Positions 13,866-47,700 of a stretch of 64,000 nucleotides of DNA are shown here, piece after piece (the first letter of the stretch is position 1; every line of letters begins with the position of its first letter). The stretch covers positions 38,291,729 to 38,355,728 of the forward strand of contig JAHRHZ010000144.1 in NCBI GenBank assembly GCA_024137785.1, read 5' to 3'. The notes under the pieces were generated by a model. That model did no database searches. It was not told the DNA's origin and saw only the letters and a program-made list of their open reading frames with translations. A program made the position numbers and the translations under genes. The DNA is from Ginglymostoma cirratum (lineage: Eukaryota).

Positions 13866-13950
13866 GGCATCGACCATAGACTCCCCTAGAAACGAATCTG
13901 TGACCGAAACATCACACAAATTCGGTTCTACAGGGTATATATAGACGACG
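13866..13950 (-). ncRNA. mir10b: microRNA miR-10b precursor
   Basis: Mature 5p TACCCTGTAGAACCGAATTTGTG at 13937-13915. 3p arm ACAGATTCGTTTCTAGGGGAGT at 13901-13880 pairs with it. Canonical position upstream of HoxD4. Confidence 0.97.
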
Positions 13951-18500: not shown

Positions 18501-19439
18501 GTCTCGCCGACTGCAGTGTGTTCTTATTACAGCGTTTTTCATATTGAATAGTTGATTCGCAACAGATATTATTAAAAAATACTTTGAGCAGTATATTTCT
18601 AGTCTAAATTGTTCAGAATTAGATCAATTAGAAAATCCTCGAGACTGGACGAAACTGTGGCATTAATAACTGGACAAATGCGTTGAAAATGTCATACAAC
18701 CTCAGCAAATTAATACGGAGGAAAATCGGCAAAGAATGTGAAGTAGATATTTTACTCTTCTTTAAACTTGCAGAATTATTTCTCAAATCAGTTTACATTT
18801 CCCAAGCAGATTTTTTTTCAATTAATCTCGTACATTTATGCAGGAACAATGCGAGCTCCCAAAGCTGGCCTAAAAAACTTGTATATCAACTATATGTGAT
18901 CAAGCAGCACAAGGTTCTTTTATTAAATAAAGAATTCTACGTACACTTGCGTAAAGGATTAGATAAAATCCATAGTTTATTTCTGCATTTTTCATTTAAT
19001 AGTTAAACAGAATTATGACACATATTGTTTATGATTACGCATTTGAAATTATAATTAGATATTTAGGAACATATATAAAGTGCACTTTGTTTATAATATT
19101 GTGATATTATTTCCCTAACTGAACACGTATCATGTAACAGCTAGCTGTTGAATTAAACTCACGTCGCATTGTGATTTCGGGTTTTCTGGCTGGCCAGGAA
19201 ATCGTACATGCGCCCAAGAGCTCCGAATGACATCAGGTGTCACGCGTTCACCAGCTCTTTTAGCGATTAGAAATAACTTACTTGCGGCTTTTCCAGTGCG
19301 AAAGTACCAGGACACCAGAAGACTGCCAAGTCATAACGGTGGATCAGGACAGCTTGCTTCTTGGTGTCACTTTCCACAGACCCTCTCAAAAAACACTAAC
19401 CATCTGCACTTGTCTGCTCTTAACCTAATATATGATGTG

Positions 19440-19580
19440 AATTATATTTTGGCTTGTCAACTCCCAAACCATAAAACAAAGTTTAATGACATCACGTGTC
19501 CTTCCGTAGCCAGTAAGGACCCTGCTCTGGGCCGTCCCTATAAATAACCCTTAAACTTTAAAACTTTTATTCACTAAAGA
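19440..19580 (-). promoter_or_regulatory. Conserved Hox5-Hox4 intergenic element / distal promoter
   Basis: Minus strand CACGTGATGTCATTAAACTTTGTTTTATGGTTTGGGAGTTGACAAG: E-box, Cdx/Hox TTTATGG and TGACA. Resembles the block shared between Hox5 and Hox4 in several clusters. Confidence 0.6.
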
Positions 19581-21664: not shown

Positions 21665-22163
21665 CTTGGTTAAGGTGCATCTTTTTCATCCATGGGTATA
21701 TCTGCATTTGCAGTGCTGGATCCTTGTCTAGTTGCCCACTTTCCGGTTTGGGGCTGTTCGTCCCCTTAGGATGTTCATCGTTTACCGGCGATGTGTCCTG
21801 GTATGAGTGATTGGACTCTGTGATAGTATCACCCGTCTTAATACCACTATCTGATGAACTTATTAAAGATCCCGAACGGAAGGCAGGTTCAGGAGATTTA
21901 ATTTTCACCCCAGATGAGCTATGAAAGGTGTTACTAACTGTTTGCAGGTAGTTGGTAGACCTTTCACTGTCACCGCACAGATTTGAGTTCGAGCGAGTCA
22001 TGCTGAGGTCTATCCCGGTGTAATCATAGCCATACCTGGCGGAGAGCATTGTCGACTCCCTGAAATGCTCGCCGACAGAAGCAGTGTTTCCATAACTCGG
22101 CAACTGATAATCGTGGCCATTTTGGTAGCGACCTGAGAAGGAGTTTAAAAAGTAGGAACTCAT
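21665..22163 (-). CDS. hoxd5: Homeobox protein HoxD5, exon 1
   Basis: [21 protein letters not shown]...[13 protein letters not shown], donor G|GTACGC, phase 1. Spliced CDS 750 nt, 249 aa. PG5 gene between HoxD4 and HoxD8. Confidence 0.95.
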
Positions 22164-24850: not shown

Positions 24851-25360
24851 CAAACATTTTCCCTTTCAGCAGGCACAATTGTGGACTACGTTCTGACTGT
24901 GGAATGAAGAAATCCTTGCGTGCATCATATACCAACTCATCTTTGTTGATCGTCATTTTCCAGTGCGTCTCCCTTATGGCAAGCTCAGAAGAAGATCGCG
25001 TTCTGCAAATTCGTTTGTTTGCCAACACTGCGAGGACTGAGTTGTCTTTGAGATTGCAATGGACCGTTTCCTTTAAGCCTAGAATCTGTGTGGAATGTTT
25101 GCATTAAAATTGACCAACTTTCACAATGTGATGCCAGTATGAAAGCAGTGCAATAAATGATTTAATGCGAAATGGTTGTCGGGAATCAGACCACGTTTGT
25201 TACAGAAGTTAAATGAAAGATGCTTCCACGAAATTATTGATTCTAAAATTGTTATTTAGAAATCATATTTGAGCATCGAAGGTACCGAAGATGTAGTATG
25301 AGCAAATCCTATTTGAGTGAAGCTTCTAGATACACAATTGGACATTTACTGTGAATTATA

Positions 25361-25456: not shown

Positions 25457-27974
25457 GTGGTTCTTGTTAAGTATTTTAGCAGTTTCAGCAAAACCACGGC
25501 TACGTGACACATTACAACACAAATTAAATAATTCGATCCTAAAACTAGTAAATGGCCTGATAGCAAATATCCGCTTTCTGATTATTATAATTACAGTGAT
25601 ATTTCTGTGGCTCAGTTTTATTTTTCTACATATTCATGATAAATTACGGATTGTTATGAAAAAATCTGTGAAACCACAATTCAGCCTTTTCATATATAGT
25701 AAAAAAAAGTGCAGCGTATAATAGTCACATAATCCTGGGTAATCAGCTTTAACGAAAATTATTCTTGAACAACTTTGTCTCATTTCATTATTTAATGGGG
25801 GCGAGTAAAGCTTGATTTGCAAAGTCTGTAAAATAATTATCTGACACACAAGCATGAACATGGCGATGCATTAAGAATTATATAAGAGGTTTTATGAACA
25901 AAATTAATGTTAATTGCTGCCTGAAAATGTAGGCAAACCTGAAACTGCTTTGTCAATAGCGAATATAACATTACTTTTTCTAAACTGATTTAATTCAAGA
26001 GTGCATACATTGCTTTTTGTAGACTTTGACGAGAAAAGACCCAACATTTAATATCGAAACATTCACAATGTTATAAGGCAAATGATCAAATTACAGATAT
26101 TACACTATTTTTGCACATCATTTTGATCCTAGCGTCATTTTGAACAGCCTCTGTTTCACCTTCATAATATGTCTGTTGGTCTATACGATAGATAAACAGA
26201 TAGGCAGACAGACATTTAGATCGGTGTTTTACAAAATCTTCATTTACAAATAGATGCCAGATGCAGAACACATTAAGATCACTATAATAATACACAACAT
26301 GGATGGTCAAACTATAATTGTTTAATCTGTTTTCAATAAAAGAAGATTGAAAGAGAAATCAGTTTTCAAACTATGGACATAACCATTCATTTCAAATGGA
26401 TGCAATTATTGTAATGTTCAGTCAAAAATTTTAACAATTTTCTCCGAACATTTAATAATTGGAAAAATACATACAAGTCAATGCCTTGGCAAATTACAGC
26501 AAAGCAACACTGATCAGCTAATCTCCTGTTGACAGTATCTCGCATAGCAGCTCCCCCCAGCCTCACCTAGCTAGGCATACTTCTGCAGCAAGATTTTGCA
26601 ATTAAATAGTTCGTATTGAGAAAAGCTTCAGGACAAAGGAAAGGAGCTCAATGATTTCTGGTGATCATTCTGTTCTGTATTGTGAATTATTTTAACGTGG
26701 ACTGGAGCTGTCGGTTCCAAATTTAAAACACTTCACATATATAGACCCCACAGCTATTATAAAATATACAATCCGATTTGGGGACAAGTTGTTGCGGGAA
26801 ATTAATCGTCACATGGCCGAGTTACTATTATTTTAAACATTGCAAATATTGACGTAGTTAGAAATATTTCCTCATTCCCTGTTCGGTACAAGCATATTGA
26901 GGGCACAATCTGATATCTACTGCGGGGTACTGAGTGGAAGAGTACCACTCGTTTGTGCAAAGTTCCGTCACGTGGTCAGACATCATTAAAATGTTTGTTA
27001 AACGCATCTCCAAAATTCTGATTACTTCCATGATTAGTGCACGGAATTATTAGGATTAAGGCAATGTATGTCATTCATCTCTGCAGCTAATCCTTAACAT
27101 AGAAAGGTCTAACTCATGTCCTCTTATGCAAAATAGCAGAGAGAAACAAACTGAAGCCGCCAATCATCAGCTTCCGCAAAACAACAGCAATCAAAATAGC
27201 GCAATTTGCAACAGCACTAATAATTATCCCACTACCAAGTTACACATTCTGATACATCTCCACTCTGGATCATTTGAAAACATGTCAGCTGCCGGTGGCG
27301 ATGCTTTCATTTCAAAGATAGCCACAAATCGCAGCTCTCCGTTCTATTGCGGGAAATAAATATTTAATTAATCTGCGCCACAGACGCCATATGAATTCCA
27401 GTGACCACCTGGATCTGCTTTGAACGGACCGTTTTCAAACCCATGCTGGGGTTTGGTCGTTCAGCCCGATTAGCACACAACCTCCGAAACAGTTCCCCAA
27501 AATTCAACGAATGAAACAAGCGCCGTTTCGCTGCTATCCATTTACAGCAATATGATCTGTAACAGCAGAGCTTAAAACCGCACAGCACTTACCCGGGTAA
27601 GGGCGCTTCCCCAAAACAGTAACCAGCTGGATGTTGTATTCCATTTCTACTTTTTCGATCAATAAAATAACTTGAAAAAGATAAACCGAAAATTGAAGGG
27701 TAAATGGAAGACTGTAAACAGACGTCAGAGGTCTGTAAGAGTGATCAGGTTGCCGAATCCCAGCATGAGACCAATGACTTCCTCATAGTTGTACAGAAAA
27801 GGACTGGAAACTGCGAATACAGCAGAAAGTCTCCTTTTTGCAAGCAGCTGGCGTCAAGTACCAACGACAAAAGCAGGCAAGGGGAGATACTGACAGAAAA
27901 GACGATTTGAGACGAGTTTGCAGCGGAATGCAGTGAAATATTCACAAGGGAAATCATGAAAAGGCCATGAACGC

Positions 27975-28060
27975 AGTTACTAGATTCACATGACCAATGC
28001 CAGCCAATAGGATCACGGGCTCCGTCGTAAACGGTCCATTACAAAGTTGTAAATTTTCTT
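27975..28060 (-). promoter_or_regulatory. Hox-type promoter-like element in the HoxD5-HoxD8 gap
   Basis: Minus strand AATTTACAACTTTGTAATGGACCGTTTACGAC...ATTGGCTGGCATTGGTCATGTG: Hox/Cdx sites, two CCAAT boxes and a CATGTG E-box. Same architecture as the HoxD4, D10 and D11 promoters in this window. Confidence 0.55.
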
Positions 28061-29299
28061 CAAACAAAAAGGAATTCGCAGCAATTCCTTGCGGATTTCA
28101 CAAGTATAGCTAGCAAGCGCCATGTTCCCTTTAACGAGTTCTTTGCTACAGCCATTTGCTATAATGTGTATTGTAACGAACGCCTTAACTAACAATATCA
28201 GCGGAAATTCCACGACAACATCAAGAGGAATATTGACCAATGCGGGGCACATTCCATAGTGCTACTTCTTTAGTACGTCCTTTAGACGCATCAAGTAGAG
28301 ACATAGGCATTTTTGAAATTAAAGCTAATCCAAAACATAATAAAAAGGTAACACCCACAATACCTACCGCTGCCAGTTATGCATCAGAAAACTTCTTTTC
28401 GTTTCCTCTCGACATTCTCACTTCATTCAATAAGTTCTAATTAAAAGAAGAAAGCAAAGCAAACGAACCAGAAGCGCCTGCTAAATAGGCATCAAAACTG
28501 CGGCGACTTTCGTCCTTCCTTTTAATAACAATTAATATCACAAGGAAAGTTGTAACTTATTCGAAGCGTTGTATGATACATATTACACAGGTCCGAAACT
28601 GAAAAATAAATAGCAGCATATGTAGGTGTCTAATTACATAGAGCACGGCACTAAACTCCTCGTGTTTCCACTGTGGGGAGAAAAGGGCATAACATATTCG
28701 AGTGCTCCATGGAATTTGACTTAATCGGCTAAAATCGCTTCTGCACTGCGTTAACAGATTAGACGTGAATGCAAGCGTAACCATTTGAATCAGTTGGTTC
28801 GGTATCTTTTCCCTTCAGTGTCGGTGAGCGGGTTCAGCAATTAAGGTTGCACTATGTTAAATGCATGGGAACTTCGTCCATTAGGAGGAAAGTATGTCTG
28901 CTAGATATTTGCTTTCCAATTTTCTCCATTACCCCATATCTCCCGCAGATTTAACTCCAGAGAAAGCTAACATTTGCCGATCTTTGCTCTGGTGTTTTAA
29001 AGTGATCTTACGGTGAAAATCCAGAACAGCTAACCAGAAATGTGACGACTTCTCATCTTTAATTTATGACGACGATAAGACTACTATCAAGGTTACAGCA
29101 AAATAACATGCATTATTAATAAAACTTTCAACAGAGCAAGTTGCCATTATTCTGGGAAAATCTTTCTCTGGGGTGAGCTGGGGTTGGAGACTAGATGGGG
29201 CAAAGAGTTTCTACAGCGGTTTTGTTCGAGACCCAAACTGACCAGTCTTCAACAGCCAACGGGAAATGTATGCAAGAATTCAGAAGAAGATTTTTTAAA

Positions 29300-30645
29300 A
29301 CCCATCTTTGGCGCTGGTTAATCTCCATACTTTGGTAAAACCAAAGGAAGTTATGTCCATTTCAAAGTATTATTTCCACCCACAAGCTTCGTCATTGTGT
29401 ACACAATTCGTTCAGTGAAAACTTGAGATTCCTAAAATCTAATCCAAATATTTTATGAGGCCGGTTTTACCATCATTGTGCAGTCCCTTCCTGATCGCTG
29501 TTGTAGGGATTTGATGAATCAAGTTGTAAATAGGACCAAATGCAGAATAGCATTTTTAAATATATATACATATCCCGTTTGACACAGATTTGTGGAAACT
29601 AATGTTTTTGATGAAATAGAGCATCGCGGAACAATCATTCATATATTTAAAATAGTCCTGGTAATGCGTGTAAGAGAGCCATGAAAAACATAATTTTGAG
29701 CAATTATAGCCTCCCCCGCATGAAAATGCAATAAAAAGATTCTGTTACTAAATTATTTAGAATCGATTTATTCTGTAAAATTATTTATATATTGCGATCA
29801 GATAGATTGTTTGATATTTAAAATAGTGTACAAAATTTATTTGTATTAAAATAAAATATAATGCAAGTAATATTGAAATGCTTTAAATTGGCAATATGTA
29901 GCTCAAAAACTGCGAGTCCCCAATTGCTTTATTCTCTGTCTTCAACTGGTTAATTGTTGTTTCTTATCTGATCATACCTGATCCAGTGAGGATATTGCGG
30001 CCGTATGACTCTGAGCATTGTAACACAGAATTTCATTCAATTACATGGCTGAGGTTGTTTCGAAAATCACAGCTGTTTGTATTATCACAGTGGATTCTCG
30101 AACTCGCGGGTAAAACGCACATTGCTATTTTTAGTTCTGCAAATAAACAGCGGCTTTTAATTGTTTGTATAACATTTGAAATACAATGTTTGCATTTCCC
30201 CCCTCTCGTTGTTTCCTGTTTGTTCTTATGAATTAATCTTTATTGTTTCAGACTGATGATACTGTTGTACTCCCTGTGCAAATATGGAGATTCGAAATTG
30301 TCAGTTCTTATGGTTGAAGTTTATAAGCAACATGTCCACTGATACTAATAAAAATTAAATGTGGCGTAATCGCTGATAAAGGAAAATTTTGCGGAAAGTT
30401 GGAAGGTTGTTCGGCAACCCAAGATGTTGCTTTCTTCTCCAACCTTTAAACCAGAGAAAAATAAAATGGAGCCAGAAGTCTACAGTTTGTCGAGTGATTT
30501 GTAGTATTAGAACTTTTATTGTCGGTTTTACGAGATTTGCTGATATACGCGTACAGTAGACCGCAGTGTAACACCAAACACTAACTTTTACAGCGTCGGC
30601 TTAGCCACACATGAGCCGGGCATGTGATCTCATTAGCCAATGGTC
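29300..30645 (-). pseudogene. Putative decayed HoxD7 relic (promoter/5' UTR, exon 1, weak exon 2)
   Basis: Hox7-like leader TTTGGTG..TATATCAGCAAATCTCGTAAAACCGACAATAAAA..CTACAAATCA (30580-30495), AEQPSNF (30415-30395), SNVR-YPRVR hexapeptide relic (30126-30098), weak homeobox relics at 29500-29300. No ATG, many stops. Confidence 0.6.
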
Positions 30646-31252
30646 ACTGGAAATACTTTTAACTTGGAGCATAGATAAACTAATATTCTAATCATCGACG
30701 ATATCGTTAACTTTTATAACTACATATAAAGAATTACGCCATCTTCAGGCTTTTGCGTCCATGTAACGGCCGTGTTGCTGCATGACAGGCTTAAACATTG
30801 TGGCTACAGAGATACAGAAACAAAAATAAAGTACATCTGATTTCATTGGAAAGGAGCAGCCTAGAAGCAGCCGCAAAAAAAAACTGGCAAGATAGTGATC
30901 CAGTAATCTCAGTTGATTGTTTCGAGATGGCCGGATTGATTTTCCTTTCCAACATTTTTGTTCGTTCGGAATACTTGTCGGAAAATGAAACAAGTACACA
31001 ATTAAATGTAATCAACATTTATTAATTTAATCACATTCGAGCATCTTAAAAAGTGACTATTGCTGCGGAATACCTTGTCATTTTTTTGCTTGTGTTTATA
31101 ATATGCGTATCAGAGATAGGTAATGGTTGAGAATTTCCGGCCGCAATACACCACTAATTATTTCAAACGCACAGTAATTAAGACACGTCGTAAGTGCACA
31201 TTTTTTCTATCATTAAGTGTGTTCGCAATACATTCCAAATTATTCATTCTAT

Positions 31253-31273
31253 TAGGCAGTTCATGTTGTTGGG
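31253..31273 (-). promoter_or_regulatory. miR-196 target site in HoxD8 3' UTR
   Basis: mRNA CCCAACAACATGAACTGCCTA is complementary to miR-196a UAGGUAGUUUCAUGUUGUUGGG with one G:U pair and one bulged U. Confidence 0.9.
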
Positions 31274-31662
31274 TATAATCACAAAATGCTAAATAAAATC
31301 AACAAACTAAATCAATCACAATACCATCTCATATTTTCGACTTATTAAAAAGCAATAAAACCTTTATTCAAAATGGCGATTTCTTCTGTGATTTTGCCAC
31401 TTGCCACTTATAATATGGGGAGCCGCAAATTTCTATTTGATGGCTGATCTGTCAAGGTATGATTGAAAAGGTTAAAATGATGCACAGCGAATTCATGAGA
31501 AATAATGTTGAATTAAGGCTCTAAAGAACTTCAAAAAACAGGTGGACAGTTTACATTAACCTAGCCATCAATGAGCCGGAGATTCATTCTGTTCAACACT
31601 GTTTAACAGTGCAGTTTGGACGAACTGAATGACGTTTTGCTTAGAGGCCAAAGGGGGTAAAG

Positions 31663-31958
31663 TTACTTGGTCTCTTTTTCTGTTGTCTCCTGCTCAGGCT
31701 CTTCCTGTTCTTTTTTGACCTCTTCCTCCTCCTCGTCGTTCCGAGAGCTTGGAAATTTGTCCTTGTTGTTTTCCTTTTTCCACTTCATTCTCCTGTTTTG
31801 AAACCAAATCTTCACCTGTCTCTCTGTCAGTCCCAGAGCATGTGAAACCTCGATCCTTCGCTTTCGAGTCAGATACGGATTGAACAGAAATTCCTTTTCC
31901 AGCTCCAGTGTTTGGAATCGGCTGTAAGTTTGCCTTCCTCTGCGTCTGCCGGGCGCTG
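31663..31958 (-). CDS. hoxd8: Homeobox protein HoxD8, exon 2 (homeodomain)
   Basis: Read by hand: [73 protein letters not shown]...ETK*. Acceptor tttag|CAG. Confidence 0.96.
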
Positions 31959-32181
31959 CTAAACAACACGAGAATCATAGGAGACAGTAAATATTGGGAA
32001 AATGCACATAAGCAAATCACTACAGACTAGCAACAAGAACAGCAAGCCTTGCTTTGAACGGTAATGTCATACAAAGAAAGTGTTGCGATAAAAGCAGACT
32101 ATTACAGACCGCGTTAAAACACGTTGGCGATATAACTGTGCAGTAAAACGTGAGATGGAAGCTAATTCTAATATATCCAAC

Positions 32182-32608
32182 CTTGAGGTCTCATCCAGGG
32201 AAACATTTGAGTAGGAGACGAGTTCTGATTTAAGTGTTCTGGTTCTTCGCCAATATTACTGCTAGACGATTTACAGTCAGGATATTGTACCAGATCGGCC
32301 TCTTGCTGTGTTGTAAAAATTTGCTGTCTTTGTAAGTTATCGTATCCGTAAAATTTAGAGGGGTCACCATGACACGTAATTCCACAAGGATTCTGTTGAA
32401 AGCCAGCATTAGGAAGTGCAGATGTCCCATGATGGTAAAAATCTTGAACTTGAGCTGGGTGCTGGAAGCTTGCGCCGCTGCTGGGACCATAGACGACAGC
32501 GTGTCTGCTGGTCACGTCTTGTGGAAACCGGCAGTCGTAGTAAGTGGGACTCAGAGCTTCTCCTGGTTTATACTTAGAGTAGAATGGATTTACAAAATAT
32601 GAACTCAT
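32182..32608 (-). CDS. hoxd8: Homeobox protein HoxD8, exon 1
   Basis: [14 protein letters not shown]...[13 protein letters not shown], donor G|GTTGGA, phase 1. Spliced CDS 723 nt, 240 aa. Confidence 0.96.
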
Positions 32609-47649: not shown

Positions 47650-47700
47650 GTAGAACCACATGACCACTGGGCCAATGGAATTTGAAAATGGCCTTGAAGC
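47650..47700 (-). promoter_or_regulatory. HoxD10 proximal promoter block
   Basis: Minus strand GGCCATTTTCAAATTCCATTGGCCCAGTGGTCATGTGG: YY1-like GCCATTTT, CCAAT box and E-box. Confidence 0.6.

Follow-up and report, generated by a model that had tools for sequence, protein, structure and literature searches.

Positions 30643 to 30475 on the minus strand of the window (the whole 64,000-nucleotide stretch of DNA analyzed here) are a real paralogue of the HoxA7 and HoxB7 promoter and leader, with the start codon destroyed. This identification stands independently of any coding relic. The element is probably an orphan Hox7 promoter and leader that selection has kept as a DNA control element after the coding sequence was lost in the C/D cluster lineage.

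Six-frame translation of the window places minus-strand homeoboxes at 63.9, 56.0, 45.4, 39.2, 31.8, 21.1, and 11.5 kb, which we take, by their diagnostic residues, to belong to groups 12, 11, 10, 9, 8, 5, and 4, respectively. For the group-8 gene, exon 1 shares 97% identity with a protein cluster that includes members named Hox-D8 in sharks and rays, and this match, together with the homeobox series, identifies the window as an elasmobranch HoxD cluster, on the minus strand and without D7 or D6. Between D8 and the start of HoxD5 at 22163, neither group 7 nor group 6 is represented by an intact gene, and none of the 13 open reading frames of at least 40 amino acids in 27800-31700 lies inside the would-be exon 1. 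In the same genome, HoxA is on contig C13 and HoxB on C105, and the A7 and B7 genes used for comparison were taken from both, the HoxA7 gene being named by its relatives. An Rfam search of the window returned only mir-10, whose precursor is at 13873-13944 on the minus strand. A block common to HoxA, HoxB, and HoxD lies behind Hox5 (19421-19518; E 2e-11 and 2e-12), and another, behind Hox9, is shared by HoxB and HoxA (C105:3843936-3843859 and C13:12785175-12785098; E 4e-11) and has no HoxD match. Two segments with short matches to unrelated loci on C249 and C34 (24275-24359 and 7115-7199) are probably fragments of a dispersed repeat within the cluster.

TABLE 1 Features in and around the Hox7 promoter/leader paralogue (positions within the window)
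Feature	Position	Strand	Basis or result
HoxD8, upstream neighbor of the leader element	31663..32608	-	Exon-1 protein match
Orphan paralogue of HoxA7/HoxB7 proximal promoter and 5' leader, whole element	30475..30643	-	blastn, profile log-odds, identity
ATTGG (inverted CCAAT box), likely NF-Y site	30637..30641	-	Aligned in A7, B7, and D
Two E-boxes, CACATG (30626-30621) and CATGTG (30613-30608), likely bHLH sites	30608..30626	-	A7 spacing
Leader core with invariant CTCGTAAAACCGACA	30520..30547	-	25-base pattern, 3 matches in genome
CTACAAATCA leader motif	30495..30504	-	Leader comparison
Leader tail and dead start codon (GTA at 30483-30481)	30475..30494	-	Anchored score
Possible EATSC-block remnant of Hox7 exon 1, unproven	30418..30434	-	6/1000 and 2/1000, ±60 bases
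Possible hexapeptide-end remnant of exon 1, unproven, not group-7 specific	30091..30126	-	Expected distance
Claimed homeobox relic, background sequence	29326..29496	-	374/500 and 270/500; 18-20% different in two other organisms
Second paralogous block, with ATTGG and E-box at 28008	27926..28076	-	blastn versus HoxA and HoxB; likelier H8/7-6

The resemblance to group 7 is strongest in the leader. Cluster-versus-cluster blastn aligned positions 30581-30486 with the A7 leader and 30547-30486 with the B7 leader (E 9e-4 each), and the leader profile yielded log-odds of 31.4 (A7) and 24.9 (B7), reached by none of 150 shuffles and none of 150 background stretches. The D element is specific to group-7 leaders (2 of the 11 tested): the nine other Hox leaders score from -7.3 to -0.7 against it. 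Its identity to A7 (102/166) and B7 (93/160) is 58 to 61%, and the two genes match each other at 115 of 160 positions. A 25-base core pattern with 19 fixed letters has exactly three matches in the 4.36-Gb genome, which are A7, B7, and the D element, and the reversed control has none. Used as a DNA query against the whole genome, the leader returned only the self-match, such a search being too coarse to detect 60% paralogues, and a metagenome pattern scan returned no matches. The first-pass annotation had described a CCAAT/E-box promoter followed by a leader resembling those of HOXA7 and HOXB7; the letters that it quoted from the minus strand are all present, about where it placed them, and both descriptions hold. 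The module of the CCAAT box and two E-boxes scores a log-odds of 14.5 (none of 500 shuffles, none of 500 background stretches), and the leader from TTGGTGT to ACAAATCA scores 24.6 (none of 300 and none of 300), ACAAATCA being present in group 5 and 6 leaders as well. Upstream of the CCAAT box, nothing significant was found, with group-7 similarity at 12, 17, and 172 of 200. The ATTGG and E-box module recurs in the window at 47676, 40610, 28008, and 12630; three of these copies stand just upstream of Hox genes (D10, D9, and D4), and that at 28008 is within the second block.

The absence of an ATG at the expected start, also reported by the first-pass annotation, is borne out: a GTA occupies the position of the HoxA7 and HoxB7 ATG. 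An alignment of the final 11 bases of the leader and the 9 that follow to the A7/B7 start has a score reached by 5 of 2,000 shuffles and 2 of 2,000 background stretches (P of 0.006 to 0.009 in an earlier version of the test). The frame running from this dead start meets a stop after 41 codons and has no Hox7 likeness, and there are stops in all three frames behind it. Similarity to A7 and B7 ends about 8 bases past the dead start. Among leader columns at which A7 and B7 agree, 78 of 106 are kept in D, and among such columns in the first 21 codons, 19 of 50 are kept (10 to 22 over 17 registers).

The element also occupies the syntenic slot, on the same strand, between Hox8 and a block that precedes Hox6/5, and it starts about 1.0 kb behind the D8 stop. 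The order Hox8, leader, second block, Hox5 is the same in D and HoxB, with spacings of 1,272 bases in D versus 1,644. From the leader to the second block, the distance is 2,476 bases in D versus 3,992 in B and 4,337 in A, indicating that about 1.5 to 1.9 kb of this interval is missing from D or was never there. The second block, 2.5 kb beyond the leader, is the stronger of the two (blastn E of 2e-11 and 4e-15 against HoxA and HoxB; log-odds 55.8, 0 of 200). In A and B, the copies of this block are flanked by Hox7 and Hox6, and the paralogues of the D leader lie upstream of Hox7. The leader had been equated with the four-cluster sequence H8/7-6, a name that we take to point to a position between Hox8/Hox7 and Hox6. 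By position and by the meaning of that name, the leader is probably not this sequence, and the second block is the likelier candidate. This block may have remained, once D6 was lost, as a distal promoter for Hox6/5 transcripts. A fourth copy of its 17-mer, on C34, was set aside, having no Hox context. The D6 relic that had also been proposed did not emerge from our searches: scans for its leader, N terminus, and hexapeptide peaked at 1.3 to 1.8, and the best Hox6 homeobox in 27900-22450 (log-odds 2.8 near 25160, within 25200-24950) did not reach significance (3 of 60 shuffles and 9 of 60 background stretches).

In contrast to the leader, the sequence behind it provides little evidence of a gene. 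That a recognizable HoxD7 pseudogene survives here, retaining the promoter, a decayed exon 1, the intron, and the homeobox in their places, is highly improbable. The LFS-like codons that had been read near the start fall in a segment (codons 4 to 28) whose match is at chance, being equaled by 601 of 1,000 shuffles and 192 of 1,000 background stretches. The whole of exon 1, anchored at the dead start, gives 42 of 300 and 76 of 300 against the two kinds of control, or 50 and 80 of 300 under the other decay setting, and an island model ranks group 7 (25/250 and 44/250) no better than Hox8 (20/250 and 20/250). When any block could be chosen, the best ungapped exon-1 segment was ordinary (233 to 385 of 1,000).

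Two stretches do favor a decayed exon, as does a slight positive lean in most group-7 exon tests. The best exon-1 match is not the register likened to PEQTS or AEPTS (EQPS) but an EATSC-like block, which requires a 34-base shift; it stands at 6 and 2 of 1,000 at ±60 bases, at 295 and 143 of 1,000 at ±30, and at 2 of 1,000 in a separate shuffle test. The other is the stretch that had been compared to the hexapeptide SNFRIYPWMR, which indeed lies at the expected distance, starting 408 bases from the leader core versus 409 in HoxA7. Its score is marginal (26 and 36 of 1,000 within ±30 bases, 37 and 82 at ±60, 69 of 1,000 against local shuffles, and 36 of 200 over the whole gap), and the Hox4 hexapeptide block scores higher on it (1.5 to 1.8 versus 0.3 and -0.5). 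The strongest result for a fossil gene is the joint score of three blocks, which was equaled or exceeded in 2 of 600 shuffles and in 9 of 600 background stretches, yet these blocks were drawn by hand after the matches had been seen, and the result is weakened when blocks are drawn by rule. Group 7 then gives 16/250 and 17/250, or 42/250 and 42/250, Hox8 (13 and 8 of 250) and Hox4 (27 and 28) are about equally good, and Hox5 and Hox6 give 50 to 224. The evidence for exon-1 relics is marginal and lacks group-7 specificity. In another organism, single-base indels at 30344 and 30385 argue against a shared reading frame. A faint remnant of exon 1, considered alone, is possible if somewhat doubtful, and the DNA behind the leader may derive from exon 1, decayed to or past the limit of detection. 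The exon-1 test found simulated relics almost always at 0.5 changes per site, 36 of 40 at 0.8, and 15 of 40 at 1.1.

The homeobox relics claimed at 29500-29320 are indistinguishable from background. The homeobox profile over the interval in which they had been read (29560-29280) is equaled by 374 of 500 shuffles and 270 of 500 background stretches, a search of 30080-28100 gives 23/150 and 58/150, and group-7 profile scans of 31600-22400 contain no segment above 1.1 log-odds. The claimed fragments have expected offsets of 57, 93, and 141 bases, and their actual offsets are about 72, 113, and 149. This result counts against a homeobox in place, since the same test recovers simulated relics (24 of 25 trials at 0.5 changes per site, 17 of 25 at 0.8, and 3 of 25 at 1.1) as well as a candidate relic of HoxA8 (0/150). 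Four-fold sites in the D and A/B homeoboxes agree at 27 of 79 positions and are near saturation, a divergence that we estimate at about 0.8 changes per lineage. Because power falls at 1.1 changes per site and these sites are near saturation, a very old relic would be at the edge of detection; the tests would overlook a true coding relic that had accumulated more than about 1 change per site, so that one may be present, although unproven.

The candidate HoxA8 relic lies on the minus strand at C13:12781087-12781035, about 1 kb before the HoxA7 promoter. It is a helix-3-like match to the Hox8 homeobox with log-odds of 4.85 (0/150, 0/150, and 0/200 in three null sets), higher than every D7 coding match, and the stretch is purine rich. 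Weak collinear exon-1 peaks occur beside it, near 12781740-12781660.

Similarity therefore largely stops at the leader, with exon 1 marginal and the homeobox at background. The proposal that the element is the promoter of a lost HoxD7 is sustained by the group-7 promoter and leader, the syntenic slot, and the dead start, but not by the coding relics, which are at or near chance.

Contigs from four of 24 listed runs, representing four other organisms, were aligned to 28200-31550; the library types are guessed or unrecorded, and pieces less than 80% alike were left out, which biases the divergence percentages. In organism B, at most 16 of 1,207 bases differ in 29974-31180 versus 42 of 798 in 29117-29973 (P = 4e-7, Fisher exact test), a fourfold-lower divergence than in the adjoining stretch. 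Organisms C and D differ by 12% and 10% just behind the leader; in the claimed homeobox region, the least conserved part among the compared pieces, the figures are 20% and 18% (P = 0.05 and 0.07). In organism E, 45 of 372 bases (12%) differ over 30472-30843 versus 17 of 314 (5%) in the D8 3' flank. The low divergence in organism B, the 12% in organism E, and the indels without a shared frame suggest moderate noncoding constraint on the element and the DNA just behind it.

These comparisons bear on whether the element is an inert fossil, surviving only through the slow change of shark Hox clusters. Chondrichthyan HoxA clusters are described as very conserved in PMC2746220, and the identity of the D element to A7 and B7, at 58 to 61%, is low enough to agree with such a fossil. 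Against it are a 15-base invariant core and motif-by-motif retention beside a coding start at background, together with the fourfold-lower divergence. Moreover, with synonymous sites near saturation, passive decay would not have spared the leader. An inert fossil was already disfavored, and we regard it as very improbable.

Selection might instead act at the level of RNA or through HoxD8, if the element lay within a long D8 3' untranslated region or a read-through transcript and the promoter motifs were passengers. The element's distance of about 1.0 kb from the D8 stop is compatible with this, and one run, RNA by guess, yielded contigs on the D8 3' flank as well as across the element. One of these, X19 from organism E, covers the element and runs 89 letters past 30843, and so spans the promoter instead of beginning within it. 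In two runs, each from a different organism, contigs terminate at about 30245-30251 (a loose-end estimate), beside an AATAAA at 30244, a weak hint of a transcript end. However, the contigs of a third run continue past 30245, further AATAAA motifs occur earlier, at 31368 and 31023, and conservation falls precisely on the DNA-binding motifs and on the spacing between them. Such an origin of the constraint is decidedly unlikely.

Under the preferred reading, the Hox7 coding sequence of the C/D lineage would have been lost and its promoter and leader retained as a cis element. The CCAAT box would serve as the binding site for NF-Y and the two E-boxes as sites for bHLH factors. The element would most likely start noncoding or long-leader transcripts running towards HoxD5 and HoxD4, or it might serve as a short-range enhancer of D8 and D5. 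Factor binding, present activity, the target gene, and the date of loss are inferences. As presented in PMC9456764, the DNA upstream of mouse Hoxa7 is a promoter whose activity is abolished by mutation of both E-boxes, and PMC4889920 gives 10 to 12 bases between CCAAT and E-box as the mark of NF-Y/USF sites. Mammalian Hox clusters have shared promoters and polycistronic transcripts, according to PMC1831499. A promoter that has outlived Hox7 by some 500 million years and is still firing, with the remains of exon 1 co-opted as the first exon of a noncoding or polycistronic transcript, is conceivable but rather unlikely.

The D element shares with the HoxA7 and HoxB7 promoters and leaders their motifs, the order of these motifs, the near-identical spacing to the start codon, and the slot behind Hox8. 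Unlike these genes, it has no ATG, open frame, or detectable homeobox, its second E-box is CATGTG rather than CACGTG, and its activity is putative. Three paralogous conserved noncoding sequences are common to all four vertebrate Hox clusters (as cited in PMC3595034). The D element is likewise a noncoding block common to duplicated clusters but differs from the four-cluster sequences in being the promoter of a gene that survives in two clusters only. Reported remnants of Hox genes include the HoxA14 and HoxB14 pseudogenes of the elephant shark (PMC3707753), HoxD12 in a caecilian (PMC4470032), and HoxA7 in the bichir (PMC1845163). In each case, as described there, a trace of a lost paralogue persists at the syntenic place, as in the D element; those remnants were recognized as pseudogenes or remnants by alignment, whereas only the promoter, leader, and dead start of the D element are significant, and its loss is likely much older than theirs. 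Our literature search found no report of a HoxD7 relic, which may be in print as a footprint in the main shark Hox and footprinting papers or their supplements.

No HoxC gene was recognized among the 70 homeobox matches in the genome. Contig C249, considered as a candidate HoxC region, was rejected because it holds a pair of genes that we take to be ParaHox-like. No jawed vertebrate is known to have a Hox7 gene in HoxC or HoxD. Because both clusters lack one, the loss of Hox7 may be ancient and may even predate the separation of HoxC from HoxD. A loss that early would also account for the saturation, and no working HoxD7 would then ever have existed. The A/B and C/D clusters represent the two lineages of the first duplication, as set out in PMC10972751. 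A once-complete D4-D8 series, proposed by the first-pass annotation, is already expected from genome duplication of whole clusters, and to derive it from these relics is an overstatement, as the gene may have died before the C/D split.

No fossil gene could be demonstrated behind the orphan promoter, the evolutionary implications are for the most part as expected, and the accepted picture that the clusters arose by whole duplication is unchanged. Nevertheless, the sequence of the element is direct evidence for the former presence of a Hox7 in the D (or C/D) cluster, and it offers a clean case of a promoter kept after the loss of its gene. If the promoter is indeed still firing, then, with the candidate HoxA8 relic, shark clusters would preserve a legible history of the first Hox losses that followed genome duplication.
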